A stretch of DNA of 64,000 nucleotides from a virus, in IMG/VR virus record IMGVR_UViG_3300047321_000238, positions 48,297-112,296 of that record, one strand, 5' to 3'. The notes under the pieces were generated by a model. It worked only from the letters and a program-made list of their open reading frames with translations. It was not told the DNA's origin and searched no databases. Numbering within the stretch: position 1 is the first letter of the stretch; each line of letters starts with the position of its first letter. A program made the position numbers and the translations under genes. Positions 15,191 through 62,824 of this stretch are shown in pieces.

Positions 15191-15213
15191 AAACTAACTT
15201 CGTTAGTAGAAAT

Positions 15214-20956: not shown

Positions 20957-20965
20957 AGTATGCAG

Positions 20966-20996: not shown

Positions 20997-21023
20997 TTAT
21001 ATGAAAGGAGATTAAGCAAGTCT

Positions 21024-21688: not shown

Positions 21689-21689
21689 T

Positions 21690-22022: not shown

Positions 22023-22324
22023 GATATATTAATGATGTAGTATATGGTATGTATACTATAGAAGAATTAATAAATAAGAAGATAGCAGTACATGTACCTA
22101 CAAAAGAAAAATTTAATAATATGCAAGATATGCTTATATTATTATATGGCAATAAAATAAAAACATTATCTTATGATAAAATAGGTAGGTATGCAAAGTT
22201 AATGTGTATTAACGTAGAGAGTAGTACAGGACCATATCAATATGACATGGTTATAAGTTATTGCGATAAACAATGGTATCTGGATAATGGTTATACTGTT
22301 ATAAGTATGGATAGTATAAGATGA
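22010..22324 (+). CDS. MELLKYIN-leader family small protein (MEVLRYIND), CDKQWYLDNGY C-terminus
   Basis: Conserved N- and C-terminal motifs. Confidence 0.65.
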   Translation: MEVLRYINDVVYGMYTIEELINKKIAVHVPTKEKFNNMQDMLILLYGNKIKTLSYDKIGRYAKLMCINVESSTGPYQYDMVISYCDKQWYLDNGYTVISMDSIR

Positions 22325-22512
22325 GTAAAGAATTATTAAGTTATATAATAGTAATGTTTATTACGGGTTTCTTAATAGGAATAATGGGAAACCTAATGGG
22401 CTCACCAAGTAAAAATAATATATTTATAGATGCTATATTATTTGGAATATTCATGATATTTTATCCATTTTATATTATTATATATGAAATAAGAAACAAT
22501 AGAAAGAAGTGA
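22321..22512 (+). CDS. small membrane protein with related N-terminus (MSKELLSYI), 63 aa
   Basis: Two predicted TM helices. ATGA overlap with the upstream gene. Confidence 0.5.
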   Translation: MSKELLSYIIVMFITGFLIGIMGNLMGSPSKNNIFIDAILFGIFMIFYPFYIIIYEIRNNRKK

Positions 22513-22519
22513 AAATATC

Positions 22520-22831
22520 ATGGAGATATTAAGTTATATAAATGATATAGCCTTTAACACGTATACTATAAAACAGTTAATAGGTAATAAGATAGCAGTG
22601 CATGTACCCACGCTTAAAGAATTCAAAGATATGCAAGAGATAGTTAAAGCACACAATAAAGATGTATATATAATGGATGATAGTATATATAATTGTATGA
22701 AAGAGGAGACATGTCTTAATATAGAAAATTGGAGCGGAGATTGTATATGTGATATACAAATAGAATATTGCGATAAACAATGGTATATAGATAATGGTTA
22801 TAAGATTATAAGTATGGAGGATATAAGATGA
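22520..22831 (+). CDS. MELLKYIN-leader family small protein (MEILSYIND), CDKQWYIDNGY C-terminus
   Basis: Conserved N- and C-terminal motifs. Confidence 0.65.
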   Translation: MEILSYINDIAFNTYTIKQLIGNKIAVHVPTLKEFKDMQEIVKAHNKDVYIMDDSIYNCMKEETCLNIENWSGDCICDIQIEYCDKQWYIDNGYKIISMEDIR

Positions 22832-23142
22832 GTGTAGAACTATTAAATTATATAAACAAAGAAATGTTTAAGATTATAATAACAGTAGATGAACTAGTTA
22901 ATAATGGAGTAGTTATACATGTAAATAATAGAGAAGAACAGGAAGAGTTTTTCACCGCAGTATGTAATGTGGATATACATGTACCTGCTGATACTAGAAT
23001 ACATTCATATAAAACACATGGAGATAAGCTGTTACACTTAATACAAAATCATAATGGTTTATATAGAGTAATGTATGGCACTAAGATGTCATTAGGTAAG
23101 TATAGAGTATTAGAGTATAAAGATATAAGTATAGTTAAGTAA
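22828..23142 (+). CDS. MELLKYIN-leader family small protein (MSVELLNYINK)
   Basis: Family N-terminus shifted by 2 aa. ATGA overlap with the upstream gene. Confidence 0.6.
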   Translation: MSVELLNYINKEMFKIIITVDELVNNGVVIHVNNREEQEEFFTAVCNVDIHVPADTRIHSYKTHGDKLLHLIQNHNGLYRVMYGTKMSLGKYRVLEYKDISIVK

Positions 23143-23148
23143 ACAACG

Positions 23149-23170
23149 GTTTTTTCTTTGCACGCGTAAT
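23149..23170 (+). promoter_or_regulatory. intergenic element copy 2 (GTTTTTTCTTTGCACGCGTAAT)
   Basis: Shares TTTTTCTTTGCACGCG with copies 1 and 3. The palindrome half is missing. Confidence 0.35.
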
Positions 23171-23187
23171 AAGAAGGAGTGAACGTA

Positions 23188-23487
23188 GTGATTGAGTTAT
23201 TAAAGTATATTAACAATGACTTCGTAAAAGAAGAAACTGTTGAAGCTATTAATAAAAGAAATAAGTTATTCAACGAACATGTATTAACATTAAGAAAAGA
23301 TATAGAAGAACTTAATGATAGAATAGAACTAGATAATAAAAGAAAAAGTAAAGCATTATTTATTATAGTATCTTCTACTATAGTTAATCTTATAATACAA
23401 TTAATATCTATAAGTCTTTATATTAAAGTATCATCAGCTATAGTATATGTATTGCTATTACAATTAGTTATATGGAAGAAAGATTAA
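23188..23487 (+). CDS. MELLKYIN-leader family protein with membrane C-terminus (V/MIELLKYINND)
   Basis: GTG start 8 nt after AAGGAG. The track ORF starts 9 nt earlier, inside the RBS. C-terminal hydrophobic helices. Confidence 0.55.
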   Translation: MIELLKYINNDFVKEETVEAINKRNKLFNEHVLTLRKDIEELNDRIELDNKRKSKALFIIVSSTIVNLIIQLISISLYIKVSSAIVYVLLLQLVIWKKD

Positions 23488-23497
23488 GTAGAAAAAG

Positions 23498-23528
23498 GTT
23501 TTTCTTTGCACGCAAACATATGTTTATA
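23498..23528 (+). promoter_or_regulatory. palindrome-containing intergenic element copy 3 (GGTTTTTCTTTGCACGCAAACATATGTTTAT)
   Basis: Near-identical to copy 1 and includes AAACATATGTTT. Confidence 0.4.
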
Positions 23529-23548
23529 TTAAGAAGGAGTGATAAGTC

Positions 23549-24016
23549 ATGGAAGAATTGTTAGAATTATTGGGAGATAGAAGAATACCTAAGTATGAGG
23601 AGACGACAGCATTTAATAACATACCTATTACAGATGAGTATGTAAAACATCAAATTATAAGTGAAGATAAAAAAGAAGTGAAGGCAATATTAAAAAGAAT
23701 AAGGACTAGCGGATTTCATTGCAATAGTACGAACAATTTAATAACTGTCATATTAGAGAACAAAGCTCTCTTAGATAAAATTAGTTTAGTAAAGGATGGT
23801 AGTTATTTAAATACAAAGATACTTTTAAAACGTAATAGCAAACCATATATACTTATATATAGTGGAATTAAAACTGTATTAGGTGATAAAGTATTCGATT
23901 TGAAATTTGATTATAGTGAAATAGAAATGTTAAATCTTATTACTGATAGAAGTGAAAGAGTATATATTAATATAAGAGATTATATAGATAGAGATAGATA
24001 TAGATGGAACTATTAA
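23549..24016 (+). CDS. hypothetical protein, 155 aa (N-terminus MEELLELL)
   Basis: Track ORF with AAGGAGTGA RBS. Loosely related leader. Confidence 0.55.
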   Translation: MEELLELLGDRRIPKYEETTAFNNIPITDEYVKHQIISEDKKEVKAILKRIRTSGFHCNSTNNLITVILENKALLDKISLVKDGSYLNTKILLKRNSKPYILIYSGIKTVLGDKVFDLKFDYSEIEMLNLITDRSERVYINIRDYIDRDRYRWNY

Positions 24017-24333
24017 ATTATATAAACAACGTGTTAAATAAGTATAACTTTGATTATCTATATGATAATAAAGTAGCAATAAGAGTACCAACAGCAGACG
24101 ATTATTATATATTAGAGAAGATGATAAATGATTATTGTAAGAGAAAATATATATCAGTAAGATTATTACCATTCTTAAGGAATAGTAATTATATAAAAAT
24201 ACATGCTACATGTATTAATATAGGACCAGAAACTATAACAAATCATTATGATATAAATATAAACTATTGTGATCAAGAATATTATATACAACAAGGATAT
24301 ACTATAGTTAATATATCTGACTGTTGTATATAG
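24004..24333 (+). CDS. MELLKYIN-leader family small protein (MELLNYINN), CDQEYYIQQGY C-terminus
   Basis: Conserved N- and C-terminal motifs. Confidence 0.65.
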   Translation: MELLNYINNVLNKYNFDYLYDNKVAIRVPTADDYYILEKMINDYCKRKYISVRLLPFLRNSNYIKIHATCINIGPETITNHYDININYCDQEYYIQQGYTIVNISDCCI

Positions 24334-24345
24334 GAGAGTAGTATA

Positions 24346-24558
24346 ATGGAACTATTAAAGTATATAAACAATTATAAACACAAGATGATGTGTGGCAGTA
24401 CTAGTAGACAAAAAAGAGGATGTGACAATATCGATATAAAAGCATGTTGTATAACATGTAATAAGAGAGACGATTGTTACTTTGAATGTGCAGGCTCACA
24501 GACAGAAAGACATTATCGAAATATAGATGAGCCATGTGATAAAGGAGTAGTACTATGA
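24346..24558 (+). CDS. MELLKYIN-leader family, short Cys-rich form (10 Cys in 70 aa)
   Basis: MELLKYINN leader followed by a CxxxxxCC...C..C...C Cys-rich body. Confidence 0.6.
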   Translation: MELLKYINNYKHKMMCGSTSRQKRGCDNIDIKACCITCNKRDDCYFECAGSQTERHYRNIDEPCDKGVVL

Positions 24559-24686
24559 TGGAATTATTACAAGCAGTTAATAAAATGAATATGTATACTT
24601 TAACAGATGTAGTCTATGCATTTACAAGAGGAAAGAAAATAGCAATAGAAATAAAAGATATTATAATAAAGAAGGAGTATTTATGA
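24555..24686 (+). CDS. MELLKYIN-leader family mini-protein, 43 aa (MMELLQAVNK)
   Basis: Not in track (under 60 aa). ATGA overlaps on both sides. Related leader. Confidence 0.4.
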   Translation: MMELLQAVNKMNMYTLTDVVYAFTRGKKIAIEIKDIIIKKEYL

Positions 24687-25051
24687 CCGAACTATTAAGT
24701 ATGATTAATAATTATTCTATAGGATATAGTTTAAACGATTTATATAATAAACATATAATAATTAGAATATTAAACAAAAAAGATTTATGTGATTTCATTG
24801 AAATTTCTAATTATAATAATACAGTTAGAACCTTTAATGCAGAAAAAGTATGGAATAAATATGTAGAACCACTTAATAATTGTAATAAAATTATATGCAT
24901 AGAATTAGAAGTAAATGACGAAGAAGATAATTATGATTTTATGTTTACATTTGGAAGTATAAGTTATTATACTGATCCAATACTACATCGTGAAAATAAA
25001 TATGAAATAGTAGATTATCATAAAGATATAATAAATAATTGGGAGATATAA
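24683..25051 (+). CDS. MELLKYIN-leader family small protein (MTELLSMINN)
   Basis: Conserved N-terminus. Confidence 0.6.
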   Translation: MTELLSMINNYSIGYSLNDLYNKHIIIRILNKKDLCDFIEISNYNNTVRTFNAEKVWNKYVEPLNNCNKIICIELEVNDEEDNYDFMFTFGSISYYTDPILHRENKYEIVDYHKDIINNWEI

Positions 25052-25054
25052 TTT

Positions 25055-25402
25055 ATGATTGAATTATTAAGTTTTGTTAATGATGAAACAAACATAAAAG
25101 AAACAGTATATGTAGACGACATAGCTGGAAACAAAATAACATTAGAATTTTCTACTAAAGAAAGTTATATGATATTTTGTAAAGCTATGGACGAAACATA
25201 TGATACTTATACTGAATATACAAAGAATGATGCATGGGAAGACTATATAGAAGATGAAGAGCAGAACAAAGATTTTAAAGGTAAGCTTGGTTTGAATCTA
25301 CATGATAATAAAAAAGGTTGGAACTATTGTGAAATTGATTGGTATAAAGATAATGGCTATAAAGTATATAAGTACGATGATATTATATTAAAGTACAATT
25401 AA
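25055..25402 (+). CDS. MELLKYIN-leader family small protein (MIELLSFVND), CEIDWYKDNGY C-terminus
   Basis: Conserved N- and C-terminal motifs. Confidence 0.65.
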   Translation: MIELLSFVNDETNIKETVYVDDIAGNKITLEFSTKESYMIFCKAMDETYDTYTEYTKNDAWEDYIEDEEQNKDFKGKLGLNLHDNKKGWNYCEIDWYKDNGYKVYKYDDIILKYN

Positions 25403-25419
25403 AAAGGAAATGAAGAATA

Positions 25420-25746
25420 ATGAGGGAATTATTAAAACATATACAAGAGAATCAATATAAAATAGAAGATATTATAAAAGATAATGTAGCGTTGTATATT
25501 GATAATAGAAAAGATTTAGATACTATAATAGAAGTAGCAAATAGACATAATATATTTATTGGGCCATTTATAAGAACATCATTAACGGATTCATATTGTA
25601 AAAAAGGAATCTTTATAAAGATAATACACATTAAAGAAAATGATTATTATGTGAAAGGATATAAATATAGATTAGGATGGAATTTCGATGATAATGATAA
25701 ATCACTCTTAACTGTATATAGTAGAGAGGATTATATATTAGTATAA
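25420..25746 (+). CDS. MELLKYIN-leader family small protein (MRELLKHIQE)
   Basis: Conserved N-terminus. Confidence 0.6.
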   Translation: MRELLKHIQENQYKIEDIIKDNVALYIDNRKDLDTIIEVANRHNIFIGPFIRTSLTDSYCKKGIFIKIIHIKENDYYVKGYKYRLGWNFDDNDKSLLTVYSREDYILV

Positions 25747-25758
25747 GGAGAGATTAAT

Positions 25759-26070
25759 ATGGCCGAGCTATTAAAATATGTAAATGAAAATATTAAAGAC
25801 AAATATACCGTAAAGATGATTATAGACAAAAGATTAGTAGTTAATGTAAAAACTAAAGAAGCGTTTAATGATATGCAGGATAAAATATGGGATTATAATC
25901 ATAAAGTATGCTTTATAGATAATGATGTTTATTCCATACACAAATCACAAACATGCATTAAAGTAGAAAGAATAAATACATCGGAATATGATTTAAATAT
26001 AGAATTTTGTGACAAACAATGGTATATAGATGAAGGCTATCAAATAATTGATATAGGAAAAGTAATATAA
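25759..26070 (+). CDS. MELLKYIN-leader family small protein (MAELLKYVNE), CDKQWYIDEGY C-terminus
   Basis: Conserved N- and C-terminal motifs. Confidence 0.65.
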   Translation: MAELLKYVNENIKDKYTVKMIIDKRLVVNVKTKEAFNDMQDKIWDYNHKVCFIDNDVYSIHKSQTCIKVERINTSEYDLNIEFCDKQWYIDEGYQIIDIGKVI

Positions 26071-26794: not shown

Positions 26795-27421
26795 ATGGAA
26801 ATATTAAAACATATAAATGAATTAAAAACTAAAGGAATAGCATATATATGTTACGATACTGGAGGTAGTGGAGAAGATGGTAGAAGATTATACGCACGCA
26901 ATATATATGATTATTATAAAGAATTATACTTCGATGTAGTAGTATTAAGCTATAGTACTCACGCAAAATATAATAATATAGATAATATTCTACCACAAGG
27001 AACTGGTGGCACTTATATGTCATCGCCATTAACTTTATTAATGCAAGATGCAGAGAGAGTTAAAAACGATAAAGAACTATGTCATTATGCTTACAACTTC
27101 AATCCTAATAATATAATTGTATTAGTAGGGGATGGAGATAACTGGAGTGAAGATAATGATAGATTCTGTAGATGTATAGAAGAGATAACAAAAACTAATA
27201 GTGTTGTATATCATGAAATATTAGGAGGTTCACATCATGATAATACAATGTACAAGCGGTTAAAAGCTAAAAGATATTCAAAGGTTCATCTCTATAAAGT
27301 AGAGAAAGAACAAGATATATTTGGCAATAAGAAAAAACAAATAAAAGGTGCCGATTATTATACTGCTATAACTGAAGATTTAGTAGATAGTATATTTGAT
27401 TGGGATGTATCATATGAATAA
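26795..27421 (+). CDS. MELLKYIN-leader family, long member, 208 aa (MEILKHINE)
   Basis: Conserved N-terminus on a larger body that is unrelated to the other members. Confidence 0.6.
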   Translation: MEILKHINELKTKGIAYICYDTGGSGEDGRRLYARNIYDYYKELYFDVVVLSYSTHAKYNNIDNILPQGTGGTYMSSPLTLLMQDAERVKNDKELCHYAYNFNPNNIIVLVGDGDNWSEDNDRFCRCIEEITKTNSVVYHEILGGSHHDNTMYKRLKAKRYSKVHLYKVEKEQDIFGNKKKQIKGADYYTAITEDLVDSIFDWDVSYE

Positions 27422-33084: not shown

Positions 33085-33299
33085 TGAGATGGAAAAAGAT
33101 AATCAAGAAATTTCCTAAGATAGGAGATACAAGAGTAATTAGTTATTTCGCATTACTTTTAGTAGAAATAGATAAAGAAGTAAGATGGCTTGAAAAAGTA
33201 ACAGTAAAACAAATAAGAGCATATAAGTACTATGGTCCTTGTGGTCAATACGGTCCACATTGGAAGAATATAAAATTTATAGATGAAGAGGTGAAATAA
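33084..33299 (+). CDS. hypothetical protein, 71 aa
   Basis: Track ORF. Overlapping start and stop with neighbours. Confidence 0.45.
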   Translation: MRWKKIIKKFPKIGDTRVISYFALLLVEIDKEVRWLEKVTVKQIRAYKYYGPCGQYGPHWKNIKFIDEEVK

Positions 33300-34075
33300 T
33301 GTTAAAGTTTATTGGAAGAGGATCTTGTTTTAATTCAAAAGAAGGAAACAATTCAGCTTATATAAAAAAAGGTGAAAGTTTCTTATTAATAGATTGTGGT
33401 TGTCTAACTGCAAATAAGATAATTGAATCAAATTTATTAGATGGAGTAAAGAAAGTTCATATATTAATAACGCATTTCCACGATGATCATGTTGGTAGCT
33501 TGGGAAGCTTACTATTATATTGTCGTTATGCATTAGATATAATACCAGATATATATTTTGAAGACAAACAGTATTTAGTTGATTTCTTAGCTATGCAAGG
33601 ACTATTAGAACATGAAGTTTATACGTATATGACAAATAGATATGTTGACGATATGAAATTAACTTATTCTCCAGTTCCAACAAAACATTATGAATTTTAT
33701 AAGCCAATTCAAGAGACTGTTTATTCAAGTGAAATAACAAAGACTGTAGTCATGACAAATTACTTTAAATGCTATGGATATTATCTTGTAAAAAATAATA
33801 TTGAAAGAACAAATCAACATGCATATTATTCTGGAGACAGCAATTCAATTCCAAAAAATATGTTAGATATATTAGAATTTTATGATTCAGCAATTTTATA
33901 TCAAGATGTATGCTTATCAGATGAACATGGATATGCTCATTTACCTCTAAGTAAGTTATGTGAATTAATACCTAAAGAATTAAGACATAAAGTATATTGT
34001 ATGCATTTGAACTCAGATGAATTAATAACTAAATGTAAAGAAGAAGGATTCAACGTTGTTGAAGTGGAGGTTTAA
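33299..34075 (+). CDS. metallo-beta-lactamase-fold hydrolase
   Basis: HxHxDH motif at ITHFHDDHVGSLGS. Confidence 0.6.
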   Translation: MLKFIGRGSCFNSKEGNNSAYIKKGESFLLIDCGCLTANKIIESNLLDGVKKVHILITHFHDDHVGSLGSLLLYCRYALDIIPDIYFEDKQYLVDFLAMQGLLEHEVYTYMTNRYVDDMKLTYSPVPTKHYEFYKPIQETVYSSEITKTVVMTNYFKCYGYYLVKNNIERTNQHAYYSGDSNSIPKNMLDILEFYDSAILYQDVCLSDEHGYAHLPLSKLCELIPKELRHKVYCMHLNSDELITKCKEEGFNVVEVEV

Positions 34076-35072: not shown

Positions 35073-35336
35073 ATGGATTCAAATAAATTTAGTAAAATAT
35101 TATTAGAAAAAAACGATAAAGATTATGGCTTATGCCCACCACCTATAAATGCTCAAGAAGGATTAAATATCTTAATTGAGCATTTTTTAGGAGAAGATTG
35201 GTTTGTAACAATGCCAATGTGTCAAGAACAGGTAAATACAGCAGCCATTTATACAATATTAAATAAATATCAAAAAAAAGAATCATTAATCGAAATCGTT
35301 AAGAACATGATAATAAGTAGAGGAAAAATGATATAA
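35073..35336 (+). CDS. hypothetical protein, 87 aa
   Basis: Track ORF. Confidence 0.45.
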   Translation: MDSNKFSKILLEKNDKDYGLCPPPINAQEGLNILIEHFLGEDWFVTMPMCQEQVNTAAIYTILNKYQKKESLIEIVKNMIISRGKMI

Positions 35337-45728: not shown

Positions 45729-45893
45729 ATGAAAAGATTAATTGATTTTTTTGTTGGAGCAGGTATCCTGTTTATGATTAGTTATTCTGCATTTGAATGG
45801 AAGAGTCCAATATTAGTAATGGCTTTCTCATTAATCTTTGGAGTAAGAGGTTATTGGGAAGGATATTCAAAAGGAATGAATAATAGAAAATGA
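45729..45893 (+). CDS. small membrane protein, 54 aa
   Basis: AGGAGG RBS. Not in track. ATGA overlap with the next gene. Confidence 0.4.
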   Translation: MKRLIDFFVGAGILFMISYSAFEWKSPILVMAFSLIFGVRGYWEGYSKGMNNRK

Positions 45894-46312
45894 ATTTAGA
45901 ATGTAGTTCTAAGGGTGATACTGATTATTCCGCTCTATTTGCAAAAGTAGACGGGGTATCCATTGAACATAGATATCAGTTATCTAAACGATTTCTATTT
46001 AATCAATGCATAGTTCACCCTGAGACATATAAACAAGCAAAGTATTGGCAAAGAAGAAATGAGTACTTCTTATTAGATTTTGTAGTAGACTCACATATAT
46101 ACTCATTAGAATACCTTAGTATGTTTTATAACAGTCTATGGTATAAATACTTAATCAAGAATTCTAAGCTTATAAAGAACTTAGAGAAGTATGACACATT
46201 CACTGACTGCTTTAAAAACAGTAACACAATCAATAGTCAATGTGATATAATTGCTTTAGTAGCAAACAAAGGCATTGATGAATTAAAAAGACAAAGTGGA
46301 ATATTTATATAA
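45890..46312 (+). CDS. hypothetical protein, 140 aa
   Basis: Track ORF. Confidence 0.5.
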   Translation: MNLECSSKGDTDYSALFAKVDGVSIEHRYQLSKRFLFNQCIVHPETYKQAKYWQRRNEYFLLDFVVDSHIYSLEYLSMFYNSLWYKYLIKNSKLIKNLEKYDTFTDCFKNSNTINSQCDIIALVANKGIDELKRQSGIFI

Positions 46313-46806: not shown

Positions 46807-47787
46807 ATGAACTTAAAAAATATACTGGATAAGTATACGAAAGCAAGCTTAGTTGAGGCTTTTTTACACTTGTATCCACATCAGAAAACTTCAATATCTG
46901 GTTACGAATATATAATAGATGAATTAAAAGATAAAGTTCAAGAAGAAACTGATACTATACTTCATATAGATATGTATATGAAAGATGGTAAAGATTCTTA
47001 TGAAGTTTATGGACTTAACCAGAATAAAAGAATAGATCTTTCTTTTATGCCATGGAATAAATGGGTAACCATGGAGATAGATCCCGAAATACTTGAATAT
47101 ATAGATGAGAAGGTTATATTTGGACATGCTCTATATGAAATATCATTTAATAGTTGCACCGAAGATATGGTACATGGATTAGGAATAGATATATCAGATG
47201 TAATTGAAACTTTATTATCTAATCCTAACACTAAAGTTACTGCAGTTTCTTCTATGGAAGACTTATTTAAAGAAATGGATAAGTGGAAAGAAGAGTTAAT
47301 GAATAGCTTTACAATAGAAGAGCTAGGAACTTTTGAACTTCAATCTGATGAATTAGTATTAAGTGATGCAAATTGTTTTGATGATAAAATAATATTAGGC
47401 AATATGAAACAAGGGACCTGGCATGCTTCTGTAGTTAATTGTAGTGCAAGTGATGAAATAGAAAATGATTATATTGAATTGGCAATTAAACATGAAGATA
47501 TAAAAGATGTTGATATCTATGATTTATATTATACTGGACCTGTAGATCTGCATGAAGATAAATTAATTACAGACAATAAAAAAATTGTAGTTATGGATGC
47601 AAGCAAGTTGGATGAGAATAAAACGTTTAACATAGAAGACTTTGAGCCTTGTATATTAGAAAGTGGAGTTCTAGCAATTGCTGGCGTAGAGGAAGGGCCT
47701 TATGAAATCTATTTATTTAAAGATGAAGAAGGTAAAATAGTAGGCTTAAGAATAGCATTCATGCAAGAAGAAGATGATGAATATTAG
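46807..47787 (+). CDS. hypothetical acidic protein, 326 aa
   Basis: Start taken at the ATG after AAAGGTGGGAAGAGAG. Track start is 46795. Confidence 0.55.
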   Translation: MNLKNILDKYTKASLVEAFLHLYPHQKTSISGYEYIIDELKDKVQEETDTILHIDMYMKDGKDSYEVYGLNQNKRIDLSFMPWNKWVTMEIDPEILEYIDEKVIFGHALYEISFNSCTEDMVHGLGIDISDVIETLLSNPNTKVTAVSSMEDLFKEMDKWKEELMNSFTIEELGTFELQSDELVLSDANCFDDKIILGNMKQGTWHASVVNCSASDEIENDYIELAIKHEDIKDVDIYDLYYTGPVDLHEDKLITDNKKIVVMDASKLDENKTFNIEDFEPCILESGVLAIAGVEEGPYEIYLFKDEEGKIVGLRIAFMQEEDDEY

Positions 47788-48134
47788 AAATAATATAGCT
47801 TTGAGAATTTATTTTTCAAGGCTTCATTTTTGTATGGACAAGTACTAAATATTATTGTAAAATGTAAACAAGCATTAAATTTATACTGCATTGAGAAGTG
47901 CTCAATATGGAGCATTGTTGTACAGGTACGAAGTGAGAAGAGAAGAATATACAGCAGTATTAAGATTAGTGCTTTTTTGACCAAAAAATTAAATATATTA
48001 ATATAAGAGTTGACATGGACAATCTCTATAAAATAACCTGTCGTAAAAGGCGTACCTCCCCACGTATTGAAAAAAGTATACAAAGGGCTAGGGATTATTC
48101 TATACTTTTTGACTATATCCAAGAAGTATAAACC

Positions 48135-48171
48135 CCTCGTGTGAATAGTAGGGTGAGACTCCCAGACGAGG
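48135..48171 (+). other. nested GC-rich hairpin in a 760-bp ORF-free region (47790..48549)
   Basis: CCTCGT...ACGAGG outer stem enclosing an inner GGG-TGAGACT-CCC hairpin. No U-tract follows. Confidence 0.25.
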
Positions 48172-48549
48172 TTAAATAATAATATTAGGCGATAAGAACT
48201 GACGAACTTATCAATTGGATGTCCTAGTGATTGATTTCACGGCATTGTTATAGTAATACATTTATGTAGTTGTTTTAGGGTTAGGAATGGAACAATTAAA
48301 GCTATAATGCTGATATAGATATGAAGACACAATTCAGAATATACTTAGCGTATATTTCATATGAAAACCTTTTTTGCTGATTATGCATTAAGGGTTTTTA
48401 TATTCATCTGTGTCCACAGGAATTCCTTAGCATATATTCTGAAGAGCAACACGCAAGCAATATGACTTATAAATTTAGATATAAGCTATTAAATAAACGT
48501 TTAATGGTTGATATGTAAATTTTATATTTTATAAGGGAGGATTATTAAG

Positions 48550-48828
48550 ATGAGTAATAATAACAGTAGTAGTTCCAGTTCTTCTGGACTAGGTTTCTTA
48601 GGAGCGTTAACATTACTATTCGTAGGGCTAAAGCTAACACACTTCATTGATTGGAGCTGGTGGTGGATAACTGTACCTATATGGGGACCAGTATTAGCAG
48701 TTATAGCTTTCCTAGTTATAACATTCGTTTGTGCAATTCTTAAGAGCATGTATGATGATCATCGTCATGAAAAAAGAATGAAGATACTAAAAGAACAAAT
48801 GGAAAAGTTAAAAGAAAAGACAAGATAG
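48550..48828 (+). CDS. membrane protein with poly-Ser N-terminus and Trp-rich TM helices, 92 aa (holin-like topology)
   Basis: Track ORF with GGGAGGA RBS. Two TM helices and a charged C-terminal tail. Confidence 0.5.
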   Translation: MSNNNSSSSSSSGLGFLGALTLLFVGLKLTHFIDWSWWWITVPIWGPVLAVIAFLVITFVCAILKSMYDDHRHEKRMKILKEQMEKLKEKTR

Positions 48829-49797: not shown

Positions 49798-51228
49798 ATG
49801 TTAAAAGATATTAGAAAAAATCCAATTAAGTTAACTGATTGCTATAACTTATCACATGAGGAATTAAAATGTAATACAGACTTTGAAGTTTCTCATATGT
49901 ATAATAGAGCAGACGGAATGTTATTATATGGCTTTAAAGAAATTGCATTAGGTATTCTTAGTATAAAGATTACAGAAGAAATGGTTGAAGATGCAGCAGT
50001 TGATGCTGAAGAATTAAACTTAACTTTCCCTAAAGATTTATGGATGAGAGTAGTTACAGAATGTAGAGGATATGTTCCATTAGAAGTTCAATCAGTTCCA
50101 GAAGGAACATGGTGCCCTAAAGGAACTCCATTTGCTCAAGTAAGAAATACCGTAGAAGGTTTCGGAGAAATGGTTACATGGTTTGAAGGCGTGTTTATGA
50201 TGGCGTATTTCCCATCTACATGTGCAACTAGAGCATTTGAAATGAGAAACTATTTAGAAGAAAAGAAAGAACAATACGGATACGATGATAGCTTTCTATG
50301 GAGATTTCATAGTTTTGGATTCAGAGGACATAAAAGCTTGGAAGATGCGTACTTCGCAGGAACTGCATGGTCAACATTCTTATTAGGAACAGATGATTTC
50401 CATATAAGACAACACATGTCAGAAGATACTGTTATGGGAAGTATTGCAGCGTTAGCTCATAAAGTTACGCAACAATATGATAATGAATATGATTGTTTCA
50501 TTCGTTCAATAGATTATGCAGCTGCAAGCGGTAAGAATATCGTAGCTTTAGTTATAGATACTTACAATGCATATAGAGTTATTCAAGAATATGTGTTAAA
50601 ATTAGCTGAGTATGCTAAAGGAAAAGGAGTTCATATTGTATTTAGACCAGATAGTGGAGACATTTTTGGACAAGCAATGGCTATATATACAAGAGTTTCA
50701 ACTGCAGGTTATAAAAATGTAAGTGTAATAATTGGAGAAGGTATGAGTTTTAATAATGCTAAATCAATGGATAAAAAATTTGAGTTAATGGGAGTGCCAT
50801 TAACATTTATTGCTTATGGTATAGGAGCAGGATTCTATAAAGATATAGAAAGAGATACTTTAGGATGGGCAATGAAGACTGGTTATTCTAATGGAGCTCC
50901 AAGAATGAAAGTAGTTAAGTCGGATCCATTTAAGCAATCAATACCTGGGATTGTAGATTTAATGTACGATGAAGATGATTTAATGACAGTATATATAGAA
51001 AAAGAAGATAATGCTGCTGATTCAATATATGAATGTATATATAGATATGATCTTGATCAAAATACAACACCTTCTATGAAAGACTTATCTTATATTCCTG
51101 CACAAGCTATTAAGGATAGAGCATACAATACTACAGGATATAGAGTTGGAGAAAAAATACAAGAAAGAATAATCATATCTAATGAAATTAAAGAACTTAT
51201 AAATGTAATAACAAAAAAATATGAATAA
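49798..51228 (+). CDS. nadV: nicotinamide phosphoribosyltransferase (NadV/NAMPT family)
   Basis: Blocks EVQSVPEGTWCPKGTPF, FHSFGFRGHKS...GTDDFH, FRPDSGD, IIGEGM, IAYGIGAG align with the NAMPT conserved regions (EIKAVPEG, HDFGYRG, RPDSG, IQGDG, IAFGSGGG). Confidence 0.8.
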   Translation: MLKDIRKNPIKLTDCYNLSHEELKCNTDFEVSHMYNRADGMLLYGFKEIALGILSIKITEEMVEDAAVDAEELNLTFPKDLWMRVVTECRGYVPLEVQSVPEGTWCPKGTPFAQVRNTVEGFGEMVTWFEGVFMMAYFPSTCATRAFEMRNYLEEKKEQYGYDDSFLWRFHSFGFRGHKSLEDAYFAGTAWSTFLLGTDDFHIRQHMSEDTVMGSIAALAHKVTQQYDNEYDCFIRSIDYAAASGKNIVALVIDTYNAYRVIQEYVLKLAEYAKGKGVHIVFRPDSGDIFGQAMAIYTRVSTAGYKNVSVIIGEGMSFNNAKSMDKKFELMGVPLTFIAYGIGAGFYKDIERDTLGWAMKTGYSNGAPRMKVVKSDPFKQSIPGIVDLMYDEDDLMTVYIEKEDNAADSIYECIYRYDLDQNTTPSMKDLSYIPAQAIKDRAYNTTGYRVGEKIQERIIISNEIKELINVITKKYE

Positions 51229-51949
51229 AACAGGAGATAAAACAATGGACATATATTTAATCTGTGAAAATAACAAAGACGTTGAAGATTACTTAACGGT
51301 TGGTAAAGAATATAAAGTAATAAGCATGTTTCCTAAAACTGGACTAATTCTAGTAAAAAGCGATACAGGATTAGTTGAACATGTAAAAGAAAGTAGATTC
51401 AAAGTAAGAAAGGATGATAGTATGAAAACATGTTATAAACCATTTATTATCGAGATAAACGTAGAAGGTAAAGAAGCTTCAGGACATATATCATATGTAG
51501 ATGAAAATTTACCAACAATGGATTCAATGAATGAATTCTTAAATATACCATCACCATTTGGAATAGATTTAAAATTAACAAAAACAGGTAGAGGTACTAG
51601 AGTATTCTTCTTTGATAAAGATGGATCAGATAAAGCTTTAGCTAACAATATGGAAGCTTTAGAGTTTGCTTATTTAATTAAGAAGACAATAGTATTGTAT
51701 AATATATTGCTACAAAACAAAGAATATGTAGTAAAGACAGTTTATGATGTACAATTTCAACCTGAAGGAAAACTATATACATTCAGAAGTACTGATAGCC
51801 CAATAATTGGACAACTTGTAGTATGCAATAGTTGTAATGGTAAAGATTATGGTATGGTAGTAGCAATTAAAGAAGAATCAGAACATGAATATAATTCAAG
51901 AGCATATTGTACAACATCTAATATTCTGTCACGAAGAGCACCATTTTAA
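51221..51949 (+). CDS. hypothetical protein, 242 aa
   Basis: Track ORF. Confidence 0.5.
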   Translation: MNKTGDKTMDIYLICENNKDVEDYLTVGKEYKVISMFPKTGLILVKSDTGLVEHVKESRFKVRKDDSMKTCYKPFIIEINVEGKEASGHISYVDENLPTMDSMNEFLNIPSPFGIDLKLTKTGRGTRVFFFDKDGSDKALANNMEALEFAYLIKKTIVLYNILLQNKEYVVKTVYDVQFQPEGKLYTFRSTDSPIIGQLVVCNSCNGKDYGMVVAIKEESEHEYNSRAYCTTSNILSRRAPF

Positions 51950-51964
51950 TTTAAATAGAATAGC

Positions 51965-51995
51965 TGGAGACTTAAAACCTCTGGCTTTTTTATAA
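51965..51995 (+). terminator. putative rho-independent terminator
   Basis: GCUGGAGACUUAAAACCUCUGGC (7-bp stem with G-U pairs) followed by UUUUUUAU. Confidence 0.4.
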
Positions 51996-52025
51996 AATAA
52001 ATAGATGAATAGGAGTGAATGTAAA

Positions 52026-52328
52026 ATGAATAAAAAGAAAAAATTTAGAGAAAACATAATAGTAAGAGCACAGGATTGTGGCAAACATATAACAGAGACA
52101 GGCGATACTTTAAGAACAACAGCGAAATTATTTGGTTGTTCAAAATCAACAGTACACAAAGACATAAATGATAGATTATTATTCATCAATAAAAGATTGT
52201 ATAATAAAGCTAGAAAGGTACTAGAAAAGAATTTAGCTGAGAGAAATTTAAGAGGAGGATTAGCTACTAAGAATAAATATGCTAATTCAGGCAAAGACAA
52301 TAACATATTAGATAAAAGCAAAAGCTAA
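52026..52328 (+). CDS. spoIIID: SpoIIID-like sporulation transcriptional regulator
   Basis: AKLFGCSKSTVHKDINDRL and RNLRGGLATKNKY match B. subtilis SpoIIID (AKEFGVSKSTVHKDLTERL...RHLRGGEATKLKY) along the whole length. Start after AGGAGTG. Confidence 0.75.
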   Translation: MNKKKKFRENIIVRAQDCGKHITETGDTLRTTAKLFGCSKSTVHKDINDRLLFINKRLYNKARKVLEKNLAERNLRGGLATKNKYANSGKDNNILDKSKS

Positions 52329-52654
52329 TGGAACTATTGGCATACGTAAGGAAAATTTGGTTAAGAAAACATTCTAAAGGAAAGTGGGAGACTAAAGATG
52401 GATCAGAACAGTATGTTGAAGAACTTACTGATGACCATCTAATGAGGATCCCACATTTCATTTGGAAACAATATCGTAGCTATTCAAAAACAATGATTTC
52501 AGATGTGATCAAAGAAGAAATAGAAGAAAGAAATATGTATATTGACTATGATAACGAATGTAAAGTAAGACGTAATCATCCAGCTCTTAAAGCAATTTCC
52601 TCTAAATCTAATGTCGCTAAAAAGAAAACACATAATAAAATATTTTATAAATAA
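52328..52654 (+). CDS. hypothetical protein, 108 aa
   Basis: Track ORF. TAATG overlap with the upstream gene. Confidence 0.5.
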   Translation: MELLAYVRKIWLRKHSKGKWETKDGSEQYVEELTDDHLMRIPHFIWKQYRSYSKTMISDVIKEEIEERNMYIDYDNECKVRRNHPALKAISSKSNVAKKKTHNKIFYK

Positions 52655-52675
52655 GAAATTAAATGAGGAAGCAAT

Positions 52676-53224
52676 ATGACAAAAGAAGAGTTTAAAGCGA
52701 TGATAATAGAAAACTATATAAAAGGGAAAAAAATAGTTTTTGTTAACATTGGAACAGAAAAATATATAGGAGATAGTTTTGCACCATTATTAGGTTCTAT
52801 GCTACAATGTAAACTAGATATTATTAAGATATATGGAACATTAGATGAAACAATTAATGGCAGAAACATGATAGAAGAATTAGAACATATTAATAAGAAA
52901 TATAAGAATGATTTTATAATAGGAGTTGACGCAGCGTTTTCTGATGATTACGATAATTGTAATGAAGATTTTATAATACGTAAAGAATCTTTTAAGCCAG
53001 GCGAAGGAGTTGGTAAAAACCATCTACCACACATTGGAAATGCATGTATTAAATTTTGTATCAGAAATGACGAAGAAGATCATTTTGATTCATTAAAAAA
53101 ACCAAACATCAAAGAAATATATAATAGAACAAAGAAAGCAGCAGACTTCATATTTGAAATAGATGAAGAACTAAAAGCGTTGGAGGTGCAATATGAAGAC
53201 AGAGATAGTCATTACACTGAGTAA
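52676..53224 (+). CDS. YyaC-like putative sporulation protease (DUF1256/GPR-like)
   Basis: VFVNIGTEKYIGDSFAPLLGSML parallels the YyaC signature CIGTDRSTGDSLGPLVG. Confidence 0.55.
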   Translation: MTKEEFKAMIIENYIKGKKIVFVNIGTEKYIGDSFAPLLGSMLQCKLDIIKIYGTLDETINGRNMIEELEHINKKYKNDFIIGVDAAFSDDYDNCNEDFIIRKESFKPGEGVGKNHLPHIGNACIKFCIRNDEEDHFDSLKKPNIKEIYNRTKKAADFIFEIDEELKALEVQYEDRDSHYTE

Positions 53225-53396
53225 AGATGAATATGATCAAAAAATAGCAGAGCTTGAAGCATTAATAGCTGATCTTGATGTGCAGTATAATTTTATATTA
53301 AATCACACAAACGATAGTGAAATCATACATGCTTTAATAAATATCAAGAAGGCTTTTATTAAGATGCGTGAAGAATTAATTATTTATGAAATTTAA
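53193..53396 (+). CDS. hypothetical protein, 67 aa
   Basis: Track ORF. Overlaps the previous gene by 32 nt. Confidence 0.4.
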   Translation: MKTEIVITLSKDEYDQKIAELEALIADLDVQYNFILNHTNDSEIIHALINIKKAFIKMREELIIYEI

Positions 53397-53763
53397 AGTA
53401 ATAGTAGCTGGAGGTAGACTTTTTGATGACTATGAGCTATTAAAAGAATGTTTGGACATGTTACTTACTTTATACGTAATGTACGGGTATGAAATAGTTA
53501 TAGTATCTGGCACAGCAAAAGGTGCAGATACACTAGGTGAAAGATATGCTAAAGAAAGAGGCTACGAAATTATACGAATGCCTGCAGACTGGAGTATCGG
53601 TAAAAGTGCTGGTTATAGACGCAATGCGGATATGGCTGACATAGCTGATGCTTCAGTTTGTTTTTGGTCAGGTTCTAAAGGAACGGGCCATATGATAGAT
53701 TTATCAAAAAGTAAAGGATTAGATTATAGAATAATAGAGTACGAGGAGGAAGAGTATGAATAG
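53386..53763 (+). CDS. SLOG/DUF2493 (DprA-like Rossmann) family protein
   Basis: IVSGTAKGADTLGERYA...ADWSIGKSAGYRRNADMADIADASVCFWSGSKGTGHMI fits the SLOG nucleotide-binding pattern. Confidence 0.5.
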   Translation: MKFKVIVAGGRLFDDYELLKECLDMLLTLYVMYGYEIVIVSGTAKGADTLGERYAKERGYEIIRMPADWSIGKSAGYRRNADMADIADASVCFWSGSKGTGHMIDLSKSKGLDYRIIEYEEEEYE

Positions 53764-56845: not shown

Positions 56846-57535
56846 ATGATATTGAATAAAATAAATGATTTTTTTAAAGGATGGACAAAGCTAGATTTTG
56901 CTTGGCTATTAATAGCTAATGCAATCATGTTAGGATTATCTATCAGAAATGGTGATACAGTAGTATCTATGATATGTGCTGTAACAGGAATAGTTAGTGT
57001 TATATTTGCAAGTAAGCAAATGACAGCTAATTATGTAGTAGGACTTATAAATGTAGCGTTATATGCTTATCTTTCATATCAAGCCAAATTATATGGAGAT
57101 TTTCAATTAAATGCTTTCTTCTATGTACCAATGCAATTCATAGGATATTATATGTGGAATAAAGCTAAAAACAAATCATCAGAACATAAAGTTGAAGCTA
57201 AAAGACTAACTGGAGAGCAAGCTATATTTATATCAGTAGGAACAATAGGAACTATATTGGTATACGCTAAAATATTAGATATGCTTAGAGGAAATATAAC
57301 TTTAATCGATTCAGCCTCTACAGTACTATCAGTGATAGCTATGATATTAATGGTTAAACAATATACTGAACAATGGTATATGTGGGTTCTTGTTAATATA
57401 GTATCTATAGTAATGTGGGTAGTATCTTTATCACAAGGCACAGGAGATTTGGCTACATTATTAATGTGGGTAGTTTTCTTAATTAATTCTATATTTGGAT
57501 TAGTTAATTGGAGAAAGGCTAGTAAGAAGGCTTAA
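56846..57535 (+). CDS. pnuC: nicotinamide riboside transporter PnuC
   Basis: Seven TM helices. LSVIAMILMVKQYTEQWYMWVLVNIVSIV aligns closely with PnuC (LSIVAMILMTRKYVENWLLWVIINVISVV). GLINVALYAYL matches GLINVTLFG. Confidence 0.8.
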   Translation: MILNKINDFFKGWTKLDFAWLLIANAIMLGLSIRNGDTVVSMICAVTGIVSVIFASKQMTANYVVGLINVALYAYLSYQAKLYGDFQLNAFFYVPMQFIGYYMWNKAKNKSSEHKVEAKRLTGEQAIFISVGTIGTILVYAKILDMLRGNITLIDSASTVLSVIAMILMVKQYTEQWYMWVLVNIVSIVMWVVSLSQGTGDLATLLMWVVFLINSIFGLVNWRKASKKA

Positions 57536-60177: not shown

Positions 60178-60198
60178 ATAATCTTGAGGGGGATTAAA

Positions 60199-61257
60199 AT
60201 GAATAAAATATCAGACATGCCAAAGAAAGGTGTATGGTTTGCTAAAGCATTACCACCACATAGAGGTCATTTAAGTACAATATTACAAGCTGCTACACAA
60301 GTACAACAATTAGATGTAATTGTATCAGAGCATGAAGAAGGAAATGGTAAACTGTGTAGAAATGTCGGAATACCATATATGCCAGGAGCAAAAAGAGTAC
60401 AATGGCTTAGTCAGGAATTAATGGACATGCCTCATATTACCGTTAAGTTACTTAATGAAAATAATATGCCTGTATATCCTAATGGATGGGATATGTGGAC
60501 TCAAGAATTACAAAAAGTTGCAGGAGAAAAAATAGATATGTTTTTCTGCGGTAAAAAAGATATAGATGTATATGGACCAAAATTAAAGAGTTATTTTCCA
60601 GGAGTTAAAGTTACAGCGTATGATACAGATACTTGTTACTTTAATATATCAGCTACAGAGATCAGAAGTAATCCAATTAAGCATTGGGACTATATATTAG
60701 GACCAGCAAGACCATTCTTTGCTAAGAAAATATTAATAGCTGGAACTGAAAGCACAGGTAAGACTACTTTAACTAAAACTTTAGCTAAGATGTATCATAC
60801 ATCATGGAGTGAAGAAGTAGGAAGATATTATGCAACGCAATATCTAGGAGGTAATGAAAATTACTTTACTGATGAAGACTTTACAAGAATAGCTCATTTG
60901 CAAGTTGAACAAGATCATCAAGCATTAAGAAACTGTAATAGAGTTTGTTTCTTTGATACAGACGCTACAGCAACAGATTACTTCAGTCAATTATATATGG
61001 GACATAGCAATAGCATAGTTAGAAGCTATATAGATCCTGATAAGTATGACATAGTGTTCATGTTGAAGCCTGATGTTGAATGGGTAGATGATGGCATGAG
61101 ATTAAATGGATCACAAGAGCAAAGAATTAAACTTCATAATAAATTAAAAGATATGTATGATAATTTAGGATTTAAAGTAGTTGAAGTAGGTGGAACATAC
61201 CAAGAAAGACTTAAATTTATATTATCAAAAATAGATGAAATGATTGGGGGAAAATAA
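60199..61257 (+). CDS. nadR: NadR-like bifunctional NMN adenylyltransferase / ribosylnicotinamide kinase (no HTH domain)
   Basis: HxGH-type motif PPHRGH in the N-terminal nucleotidyltransferase half. Walker A GTESTGKTTL in the C-terminal kinase half, as in NadR GGESSGKS. Start after GAGGGGGA. Confidence 0.75.
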   Translation: MNKISDMPKKGVWFAKALPPHRGHLSTILQAATQVQQLDVIVSEHEEGNGKLCRNVGIPYMPGAKRVQWLSQELMDMPHITVKLLNENNMPVYPNGWDMWTQELQKVAGEKIDMFFCGKKDIDVYGPKLKSYFPGVKVTAYDTDTCYFNISATEIRSNPIKHWDYILGPARPFFAKKILIAGTESTGKTTLTKTLAKMYHTSWSEEVGRYYATQYLGGNENYFTDEDFTRIAHLQVEQDHQALRNCNRVCFFDTDATATDYFSQLYMGHSNSIVRSYIDPDKYDIVFMLKPDVEWVDDGMRLNGSQEQRIKLHNKLKDMYDNLGFKVVEVGGTYQERLKFILSKIDEMIGGK

Positions 61258-61836
61258 ATGAGAAAGCTATTAAGCGTAGATAAACAAACGGATAATAAAT
61301 TCTTAAACATGTTTGTAGCAAACTATGAAGAAGACGGTGAAGAGTCTAAATACTTTATTGCATCAAGAAAAAAGAATGCAGAAGATTTAGATTGTATGAC
61401 TGGTAAGATGGTAGCTGATGCAGTAATAATCGTTCCTGTATATACTAATGGAGATATATTATTTATTAAGCAATTTAGAAAACCTATAAATGATTATATA
61501 TATGAATTTCCAGCAGGATTAATCGATGCAGGTGAAACTAGTAAACAAGCTGCAATAAGAGAGCTTCATGAAGAAACTGGATTAAGTGTAGTAAGTGCTA
61601 GAGAATTAATCAAGCCTACGTATACATCAGTTGGAATGTCAGATGAAGCTGTAGGAATATATATAGCTGAAGTTCAAGGAGAACTATCTCAAGAATATCA
61701 AGAAAAAAGCGAGGATATAAATTTTGAAATAGTAAAAATAGATGACTTAGCAAAGTTCATTAAAGAAAACAAAGTAGCAATGCAAGCATCAATACTTTCT
61801 TTATTCTTATATAGCATAGAAAAAGGAGAATATTAA
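61258..61836 (+). CDS. Nudix hydrolase (ADP-ribose pyrophosphatase-like)
   Basis: Nudix box GLIDAGETSKQAAIRELHEETGL. Start overlaps the NadR stop (TAAATG). Confidence 0.75.
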   Translation: MRKLLSVDKQTDNKFLNMFVANYEEDGEESKYFIASRKKNAEDLDCMTGKMVADAVIIVPVYTNGDILFIKQFRKPINDYIYEFPAGLIDAGETSKQAAIRELHEETGLSVVSARELIKPTYTSVGMSDEAVGIYIAEVQGELSQEYQEKSEDINFEIVKIDDLAKFIKENKVAMQASILSLFLYSIEKGEY

Positions 61837-62371: not shown

Positions 62372-62824
62372 ATGGAAATAAAAGAAGTGAAAGGCAATTT
62401 ATTAGAAGCAAGTGAAGATCTAATATGTCATCAAGTAAACTGCCAAGGTAGAATGGGTAGTGGAGTAGCTTTAGCTATTAAAGAAAAGTATCCACAAGTA
62501 TATAAGCAATATAAAACTATGTGTAAATTAACGAATCCTTTAGGAGAAGCACAAGCAATCCAAGTATCAGAAAAACAAATAGTAATTAATATGTATGCAC
62601 AAGAATTCTATGGATATGATAAAAAGCAATATACTAGTTACGAAGCGTTTGAGAAGTGTTGTAAGAAGATTCGAGATATTGCAATTCAATTTAACTTAAG
62701 TGTAGCAATGCCATATAAGATTGGTAGTGTACGCGGAGGAGCTGAATGGGACGAGATATACAAGATATTAGTAAAGTATTTTGGACCACTAAGTAAAGTA
62801 AATTTAACGCTGTATAAATTATAA
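62372..62824 (+). CDS. macrodomain protein (DarG/TARG1-like)
   Basis: ICHQVNCQGRMGSGVALAIKEKYP parallels DarG VNTVNCVGVMGKGIALQFKRRYP and TARG1 CISEDCRMGAGIA. Confidence 0.65.
   Translation: MEIKEVKGNLLEASEDLICHQVNCQGRMGSGVALAIKEKYPQVYKQYKTMCKLTNPLGEAQAIQVSEKQIVINMYAQEFYGYDKKQYTSYEAFEKCCKKIRDIAIQFNLSVAMPYKIGSVRGGAEWDEIYKILVKYFGPLSKVNLTLYKL

Follow-up and report, generated by a model that had tools for sequence, protein, structure and literature searches.

A conserved SpoIIID–orphan–YyaC gene cassette in an uncultured, very probably jumbo, phage lineage

Results

The 64,000-nucleotide stretch of viral DNA analysed here (IMG/VR record IMGVR_UViG_3300047321_000238, positions 48,297 to 112,296; hereafter the window) carries at 52026..53224 three genes that encode, in order, a SpoIIID-family helix-turn-helix (HTH) protein, a protein of no known family that we call the orphan, and a member of the YyaC/DUF1256 family (Table 1). 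What is new here is that these genes form a conserved, coupled cassette in an uncultured, very probably jumbo, phage lineage, and that the orphan and YyaC are associated throughout that lineage. The original prediction had singled out the SpoIIID and YyaC homologues, placing the second two genes downstream of the first, and this placement is correct, a single 108-aa open reading frame (ORF), the orphan, lying between them. It contained neither the conserved three-gene cassette nor the lineage-wide pairing of orphan and YyaC.

The SpoIIID assignment is secure at the level of the family. The protein covers positions 2-80 of the 82 in the Pfam SpoIIID profile PF12116, scoring 96.6 bits against a cut-off of 27 (E 9e-28). 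It also matches phrog_11726 ('sporulation stage III protein D'; E 4e-20) and the Bacillus subtilis SpoIIID structure 2L0K (E 3e-16; residues 14-87 against 8-81, 37/74 identical). The predicted motifs FG.SKSTVHKD and LRGG.ATK.KY are both present. The similarity had been described as extending along the whole length of the protein, which goes slightly too far, as residues 1-13, a basic extension, and a 13-residue C-terminal tail do not align. In a comparison of the window protein with 117 other family members, mostly cellular, the recognition helix (S39-KSTVHKD-46) was identical in all 117 sequences, and R14, T28, R30, R50-L51, N69, E72-R73 and R76-GG-L-ATK-N-KY85 were also kept. The only internal departures from positions conserved in at least 80% of cellular sequences were Y21H, V29L, H74N and I75L, the last two confined to the window and one relative (L003, below), while F7 aligns with the cellular start Met beneath an N-terminal extension. 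The HTH recognition helix and the C-terminal basic region are reportedly both required for SpoIIID to bind DNA (Himes 2010, cited in PMC3789822), and both regions are conserved in the window protein. As a separate observation, C18 and C38 occur in 4/4 phage-clade SpoIIIDs examined, where cellular proteins have L/I and I/V; the two cysteines might be joined in a disulfide or respond to redox state as a pair, or might simply be core substitutions. The nearest cellular SpoIIIDs are 47-63% identical to the window protein and all come from Clostridia, mostly gut metagenome-assembled genomes (Oscillospiraceae, Lachnospiraceae and others), whereas phage-clade SpoIIIDs are 64-96% identical to it. The lack of a close cellular donor, set against this identity within the clade, implies that spoIIID is a long-time resident of the phage lineage rather than a recent capture.

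The third gene of the cassette is equally well placed in its family. It scores 112.9 bits with PF06866 (DUF1256) against a cut-off of 27 (E 1.4e-32), spanning positions 13-159 of the 164 in the profile, matches phrog_8268 'spore protease', and carries at residues 25-40 the IGT...GDS..PL.G signature on which it had been recognised as YyaC (VNIGTEKYIGDSFAPLLGS). Profile searches thus uphold both family assignments, with each Pfam match far above chance. The C-terminal third of the protein is replaced by a long predicted helix. For a confident AlphaFold2 (AF2) model (pLDDT 88.4, pTM 0.86), the top PDB matches in Foldseek were NiFe-hydrogenase maturation proteases (HycI 5ZBY, 5TTX; HybD-like proteins) and the germination protease GPR (7C4X/1C8B) (E 8e-4 to 3e-3), and a HybD-like fold has been reported for bacterial YyaC (PMC12700454). 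Ten phage YyaC copies share unvarying N24, G26, T27, G32, D33, F35, P37, G40, D85 and G121. The profile built from such copies matches both GPR sequences, pairing ..FIIGVDAA.. with ..FIIAIDAL.. and ..PGeGV.. with ..PGSGVG.., and D85 falls opposite the Asp in the IAIDAL motif of GPR, a residue reportedly catalytic (Carroll and Setlow 2005). By motif similarity only, D33 is a candidate equivalent of the GPR active-site Asp. On the strength of the model and these motifs, the window protein looks like an active enzyme of the HybD/GPR-like peptidase superfamily. GPR itself was considered and rejected as its identity, with scores of 16.1 against a threshold of 27.8 bits for Peptidase_A25 and 14.4 against 120 for TIGR01441, and a length of 182 aa compared with the ~370-aa GPR zymogen.

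The orphan, encoded between these two proteins, consists of a compact alpha/beta core over residues 1-85 followed by a basic tail that is disordered. It belongs to no Pfam, PHROG or PADLOC family and has no fold or sequence relatives in the PDB, and the PADLOC defence models gave no meaningful match to any cassette protein. An exhaustive HMMER search of 1.84 billion representatives returned 16 relatives of ~100-136 aa, save for one 50-aa fragment and one 520-aa protein, with SKGxWxTKDG..HLMRIP, EIxxRNM and the basic tail as common motifs. No orphan occurs in deposited phages, and no related YyaC or orphan loci were found via IMG/VR, JGI metagenomes or GTDB genomes.

Comparison across relatives revealed the cassette as a unit. 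The order [~232-aa gene]-SpoIIID-orphan-DUF1256 recurs, with differing flanks, at loci L003 and L004: the first lies on a 136.8-kb contig, encodes a SpoIIID 76% identical to that of the window and lacks NAMPT upstream, and the second, also present on a 259-kb contig, encodes a SpoIIID 64% identical. The orphan and DUF1256 occur together in 6/6 loci and are adjacent in four, with SpoIIID present in three only. The orphan–YyaC pairing is accordingly lineage-wide, and from the same counts SpoIIID appears to have been added in one subclade. All three cassette genes show ratios of nonsynonymous to synonymous substitution (dN/dS) of 0.21-0.41 at dS up to 1.6 (spoIIID 0.21-0.41; yyaC 0.21-0.28), and in L004 they keep 55-63% amino-acid identity compared with 19-42% for neighbouring genes. 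The cassette is maintained by purifying selection. Adjacency of SpoIIID and YyaC is not a cellular arrangement: among 80 cellular spoIIID loci, a yyaC-like gene lies within 1.5 kb in only one, and the orphan is absent from all. The single cellular case is Caloramator fervidus DSM 5463 (L071, NZ_FNUK01000001.1), whose YyaC-like protein is 36% identical to phage G gp219 over 122 aa.

Signals for expression are conserved together with the coding sequences. An independent gene caller chose the same start for spoIIID, and TAGGAGTGA, the sequence around its ribosome-binding site (RBS), is unvarying in all three SpoIIID-bearing phages (window, L003 and L004). A hairpin followed by a T-run separates spoIIID from the preceding gene in 3/3 of them (z-scores -2.1 to -5.4); the window copy has a fold energy of -13.2 kcal/mol (z = -3.6), and in L004 the stem sequence differs while the structure is kept (-17.9 kcal/mol, z = -5.4). 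This terminator-like hairpin marks the point at which a new transcription unit begins. In all three phages the orphan's start codon overlaps the spoIIID stop (TAATG), which suggests that the two genes are translationally coupled. The boundaries of the unit are less sharply drawn. The gene preceding the hairpin is found before the cassette in 3/3 SpoIIID-bearing phages, at ~232 aa in that arrangement, and is poorly conserved (77% amino-acid identity to L003, 33% to L004; dN/dS 0.34-0.81). It has no Pfam, PHROG or PADLOC match, and its membership of the cassette unit is uncertain. The 67-aa ORF that overlaps the end of yyaC is 72% identical to its counterpart in L003 and, at 19%, not recognisable in L004; it matches no family above threshold and probably lies outside the cassette core.

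As the original prediction had held, the carrier of these genes is a phage; they do not lie on contaminating bacterial DNA. The window has a GC content of ~29%, with + strand genes densely packed from ~5.1 kb onward, and corresponds to two Logan contigs of run SRR26076558, one of 108 kb and one of 15.6 kb. The 108-kb contig extends beyond the left edge of the window, and ~1.7 kb out from that edge it encodes a Terminase_6N large subunit and Cpn10; many window proteins match PHROGs. Identities of 50-61% connect window proteins with those of Bacillus myoviruses and of phage G; examples are a 684-aa protein ~60% identical to Bacillus Herelleviridae proteins and an OmpA-NMT1 protein that shares 50% identity with gp249 of Bacillus phage G (497 kb). 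The SpoIIID–orphan–YyaC cassette recurs on 137-259-kb contigs alongside the same phage genes. A YyaC protein identical to that of the window is present on a 247,883-bp JGI contig, and relatives are found on contigs of 137-370 kb, so that the carrier is very probably an uncultured jumbo phage. A megablast comparison with 50,697 deposited phages brought up no near relative at the DNA level.

We also searched the phage DNA for sites that its SpoIIID might recognise, using the consensus strings GGACAAG and WWRRACARNY, which are reportedly those of Halberg and Kroos (1994) and Himes (2010). GGACAAG occurs 14 times in the window against 3.4 expected from dinucleotide shuffles, and 0/100 shuffles reached that number; four copies cluster at 5750..6101 inside three small genes, with 10 other sites elsewhere. 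Nearly all copies fall within coding sequence, most of them in frame as GGA-CAA-G (Gly-Gln) or GAC-AAG (Asp-Lys) codons, and GGACAAG ranks only second of 140 same-composition 7-mers, close to unrelated ones. On these grounds the excess was rejected as evidence of SpoIIID sites and attributed to codon usage in coding sequence. WWRRACARNY was not enriched in the window (86 against 72 expected; 8/100 shuffles reached 86), and the upstream region of the cassette contains no SpoIIID core match.

The cassette lies in an accessory and host-takeover zone that encodes the anti-Pycsar protein Apyc1, Tad8, NADAR, Macro and NUDIX proteins, a dCMP deaminase and an NAD-salvage set made up of NAMPT, the nicotinamide mononucleotide (NMN) transporter PnuC and a NadR-like NMN adenylyltransferase/kinase (AAA_28). 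L009, a more distant locus of the lineage, additionally carries an Acb2/Tad1-like gene. Just downstream of the cassette is a YAcAr/SLOG-family protein (PF10686, 60.4 bits); a YAcAr–NUDIX pair also sits between the orphan and DUF1256 in L006 (8683..9516) and L007 (9601..10491), and YAcAr is a persistent neighbour of the cassette genes. In L007 a YyaC-like gene stands beside an 80-aa MazE/AbrB-SpoVT-type protein (11029..11864), and in phage G (L011, 5908..6928) beside the MerR-type HTH gene gp220. A reading of gp220 as a cryptic SpoIIID was rejected, as it gave no BLASTP alignment and its Pfam match is MerR. In the window clade the corresponding neighbour is SpoIIID, two genes upstream of YyaC. 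This repeated occurrence of YyaC near small DNA-binding proteins of differing families could reflect a general pairing of regulator and protease, or a coincidence.

Other features of the window are listed in Table 1. The first gene of the + strand block encodes a GGDEF protein (PF00990, 74.5 bits) with an intact RYGGDEF motif, a candidate phage diguanylate cyclase that could alter host c-di-GMP signalling. Another gene matches DUF444 (YhbH/YeaH) with 35.7 bits over C-terminal positions 284-409 of 418 only; yhbH of B. subtilis is a sigma-E-dependent sporulation gene, and the window may thus contain a third gene connected with sporulation. The largest gene has no Pfam or PHROG match. Within a tandem array of about 15 ORFs of no known family, at least 12 resemble one another (20-52% identity, with BLASTP E values as low as 2e-30), which makes the array an expanded paralogue family. 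Several gene-free stretches are unusually long for so tightly packed a genome and may contain promoters, replication origins or RNAs not yet catalogued; L003 and L004 share the gap that follows the DUF6557 gene. Searches of the whole window gave no Rfam families and no tRNAs, and a sigma-70 promoter scan found fewer sites than in shuffled sequence.

Table 1. Coordinates of the cassette and of other features in the window
Feature	Position	Strand	Description
Upstream syntenic gene	51245..51949	+	234 aa, no known family
Terminator-like hairpin	51962..51992	+	8-bp stem, 9-nt loop, then T6
Ribosome-binding site AGGAG	52011..52015	+	10 nt upstream of spoIIID ATG, read from sequence
SpoIIID-family HTH DNA-binding protein	52026..52328	+	100 aa, PF12116
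Orphan protein	52328..52654	+	108 aa, no family
YyaC/DUF1256-family protein, putative HybD/GPR-fold protease	52676..53224	+	182 aa, PF06866
Predicted coiled-coil ORF	53193..53396	+	67 aa, overlaps yyaC 3' end by 32 nt
YAcAr/SLOG-family protein	53386..53763	+	PF10686
Counter-defence/NAD genes	33299..34075, 35073..35336, 45890..46312, 49798..51228, 56846..57535, 60184..61257, 61258..61836, 62372..62824
GGDEF protein	5099..5554	+	151 aa, candidate diguanylate cyclase
Largest window gene	8928..13946	+	1672-aa ORF, 1647 aa as called
Tandem array	20304..26070	+	~15 ORFs of 100-122 aa
DUF444-like gene	26795..27421	+	208 aa
Gene-free stretches	4566..5098, 15102..15894, 18963..20056, 47787..48550

Discussion

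The cassette described here combines two gene families that are familiar from spore-formers and their phages with a third that is not. The window SpoIIID shares family and size class with cellular SpoIIID, the regulator of the sigma-E to sigma-K switch (2L0K, PF12116/TIGR02844), including 50% identity over 74 residues, an identical SKSTVHKD and a conserved RGGxATKxKY. It differs in being phage-encoded without the cellular gene neighbours, in scoring 91 rather than ~109-112 bits, in its extra basic N-terminal extension and C-terminal tail, and in carrying Y21H, C18 and C38. Deposited phages of spore-formers encode annotated members of the same family (phrog_11726; Clostridium phages phi3626 and vB_CpeS-CP51, Bacillus phage vB_BceM-HSE3), to which the window protein is 30-57% identical, and spoIIID (K06283) is listed in Table 1 of Schwartz et al. 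2023 (PMC10294663). These deposited carriers are mostly small temperate siphoviruses or myoviruses of ~124-165 kb, whereas here the gene belongs to a cassette in a jumbo-phage lineage; Lysinibacillus LC76P1, alone among deposited phages in carrying both spoIIID and yyaC, has them ~82 kb apart.

Much the same holds for YyaC. The bacterial protein, a sigma-F-controlled forespore protein (DUF1256, TIGR02841), shares with the window copy its Pfam family, the HybD/GPR-like fold and the IGT..GDS..P..G and xDA motifs, while the window copy is phage-encoded, falls below the equivalog cut-off, has a diverged C-terminus and is paired with the orphan. Phage 'spore proteases' of the same family are known from spore-former phages (phrog_8268; phiCD211/phiCDIF1296T gp219, Bacillus phage G gp219, Paenibacillus phage Lilo), and the phage G protein is named as such in the 2025 phage G paper. 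The window YyaC is only 25-36% identical to these. Phage G, which judged by a different protein (50% identity) is the nearest cultured relative of the lineage, has a canonical, full-length YyaC (118.8 bits) that lies beside a MerR-type HTH gene and not SpoIIID. GPR (Peptidase A25, 1C8B/7C4X) and the HybD/HycI proteases share the fold, the second-catalytic-Asp motif and PGxGVG, but the window protein is half the length of GPR and scores below its family thresholds. The closest conceptual parallel is provided by phage sporulation sigma factors (sigF/sigG-like; Schwartz et al.), which are likewise phage copies of a sporulation transcription regulator and can rewire the host programme, although SpoIIID, as a small HTH repressor/activator, belongs to another protein class. 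Phage-borne spoIIID and yyaC are thus already catalogued, in PHROGs and in phi3626, CP51, HSE3, phiCD211, phiCDIF1296T, phage G and Lilo, and the novelty that the original prediction attached to them was overstated.

The host is most likely an endospore-forming member of the Clostridia. Similarity to cellular SpoIIIDs narrows it no further than the class Clostridia. Sporulation genes, spoIIID among them, are enriched in phages of spore-formers (PMC10294663). The earlier claim that the cassette pins the host to a spore-forming Firmicute is reasonable in light of the nearest SpoIIIDs and this enrichment, but the argument is indirect, with no host link and no close donor to fix it.

Our preferred reading, held tentatively, is that the cassette interferes with host sporulation. 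The cassette would be transcribed together with the neighbouring host-takeover and anti-defence genes, and the phage SpoIIID would bind host SpoIIID boxes; with an unchanged recognition helix and the same basic C-terminal motif, it should still recognise host-type sites. In B. subtilis such sites overlap the -10/-35 elements of the sigma-E promoters of spoIID and spoIIIA, and SpoIIID represses much of the sigma-E regulon, also acts as an activator and is required for sigma-K expression (PMC517825); in Clostridioides difficile, expression of the sigK regulon is under SpoIIID control (PMC3789822). A phage SpoIIID supplied at the wrong time or dose would therefore be expected to mis-regulate the sigma-E to sigma-K programme of the mother cell and derail engulfment-stage expression. 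The YyaC-type protease would cleave some protein substrate of the sporulating cell, probably in concert with the orphan or under its control, and could thereby either keep the forespore alive or undermine it. In B. anthracis, forespores collapse in a yyaC::Tn mutant (PMC12700454). Control over whether sporulation runs to completion in an infected cell would in this way pass from the host to the phage. Such interference, which the original prediction had suggested as manipulated sporulation timing or entrapment, is plausible and could run in either direction: sporulation may be arrested, keeping the cell productive through a long jumbo-phage cycle, or forespore viability may be supported so as to entrap the phage genome. 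Phage-carried sporulation sigma factors cut spore yield by up to 99%, according to work cited in PMC10294663.

Several observations weigh against sporulation interference. Both homologues miss the NCBIfam equivalog cut-offs, SpoIIID with 91.3 against 111.5 bits for TIGR02844 and YyaC with 80.8 against 84.9 bits for TIGR02841 (model positions 1-108 of 140), and by these scores they appear to be genuine but diverged members of their families rather than orthologues. The phage SpoIIID clade as a whole scores 82.8-97.8 where cellular gut-Clostridia SpoIIIDs score 108.9-112.3, and its members have Y21H, V29L/I, C18, C38 and the basic N-terminal extension in common; given these low scores and clade-specific changes, DNA-binding specificity or partners may have shifted. 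Relatives of the window YyaC score 66-78 bits with TIGR02841, compared with 118.8 bits over the full model for phage G gp219. No substrate is known even for bacterial YyaC, and the B. subtilis homologue is dispensable for efficient sporulation (PMC12700454). The neighbours of the cassette are anti-defence genes and not other sporulation genes. In L009 the orphan adjoins DUF1256 without SpoIIID, and in L006 (249-kb contig) and L007 (370-kb contig) the two lie 3.7-4.1 kb apart with no SpoIIID in the 14 kb examined; the genes upstream of the orphan in L009 and L006 were considered as diverged SpoIIIDs and rejected. The trio is consequently not obligate, and the function of YyaC and the orphan may be unrelated to SpoIIID. 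We found neither a prophage nor a binned copy, nor anything else that would tie the phage to a host, and the literature searched contained no experiments on any phage SpoIIID or YyaC.

The first of two alternatives that draw on these points, which we consider unlikely though worth serious attention, is that the SpoIIID-like HTH protein controls genes of the phage itself, as a temporal switch or a repressor of its neighbours, and plays no part in sporulation, its likeness to SpoIIID reflecting ancestry. A distinct, diverged clade below the equivalog cut-off, with its own residues and an added basic N-terminus, would fit such a regulator, as would the missing cellular donor, which implies long residence in phages, and the position of spoIIID as first gene of its transcription unit right after the terminator, where regulators typically stand. 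The unchanged recognition helix and C-terminal DNA-binding motif speak for continued binding of host sites, however, and the phage DNA offers its SpoIIID no convincing box signal (86 against 72, with the GGACAAG excess explained by codons) and no core match upstream of the cassette.

The second alternative, that YyaC and the orphan form a lineage-wide protease module unrelated to sporulation, seems to us about equally unlikely. Such a module might process phage proteins or inactivate a host defence or housekeeping protein, with SpoIIID a later, independent insertion and the 'spore' label an artefact of annotation. This account draws on the presence of orphan and DUF1256 in 6/6 loci against SpoIIID in three only, on a neighbourhood dominated by counter-defence genes, on the diverged C-terminus and sub-threshold score of the lineage YyaC where the phage G copy passes at 118.8 bits, and on the lack of any known substrate for a YyaC protease. 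To our knowledge, DUF1256/YyaC is restricted to endospore-formers and their phages. The module account sits poorly with this and with the deposited phages that have a DUF1256 match, whose hosts all belong to Bacillus, Clostridioides, Paenibacillus or Lysinibacillus unless the phage stems from a faecal virome, and with the TAATG overlap of SpoIIID and orphan kept in three phages, which argues for co-expression over accidental juxtaposition. That the genes are recently captured host DNA without function for the phage is effectively refuted: large phages do accumulate many accessory genes, and this is a zone whose content varies between relatives, but dN/dS of 0.2-0.4 over dS up to 1.6, better conservation of the three genes than of their flanks, the absence of a close cellular donor, the conserved RBS, coupling and terminator, and unvarying candidate catalytic and DNA-binding residues all stand against it.

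A more elaborate version of sporulation interference, which we regard as rather improbable, is that the orphan and the diverged YyaC constitute an undescribed two-component effector, with the orphan as adaptor, inhibitor or substrate, which in one subclade has been wired to a SpoIIID mimic in a coupled operon and acts on both mother-cell transcription and forespore proteostasis. If true, effector and mimic together would amount to a dedicated viral 'sporulation checkpoint' module.

Because phage carriage of sporulation regulators is already established, the payoff of the present finding is incremental rather than conceptual. By forming spores, bacteria nonetheless evade phages and yet can also carry them through unfavourable times, and the Clostridia that sporulate have a central place in the ecology of the gut and in disease. 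At ~1.2 kb the cassette is compact, conserved, under selection and directly clonable, and it could be used to test viral takeover of the sigma-E to sigma-K switch. It could also give a handle on the substrate of YyaC, the protein whose loss collapses B. anthracis forespores.

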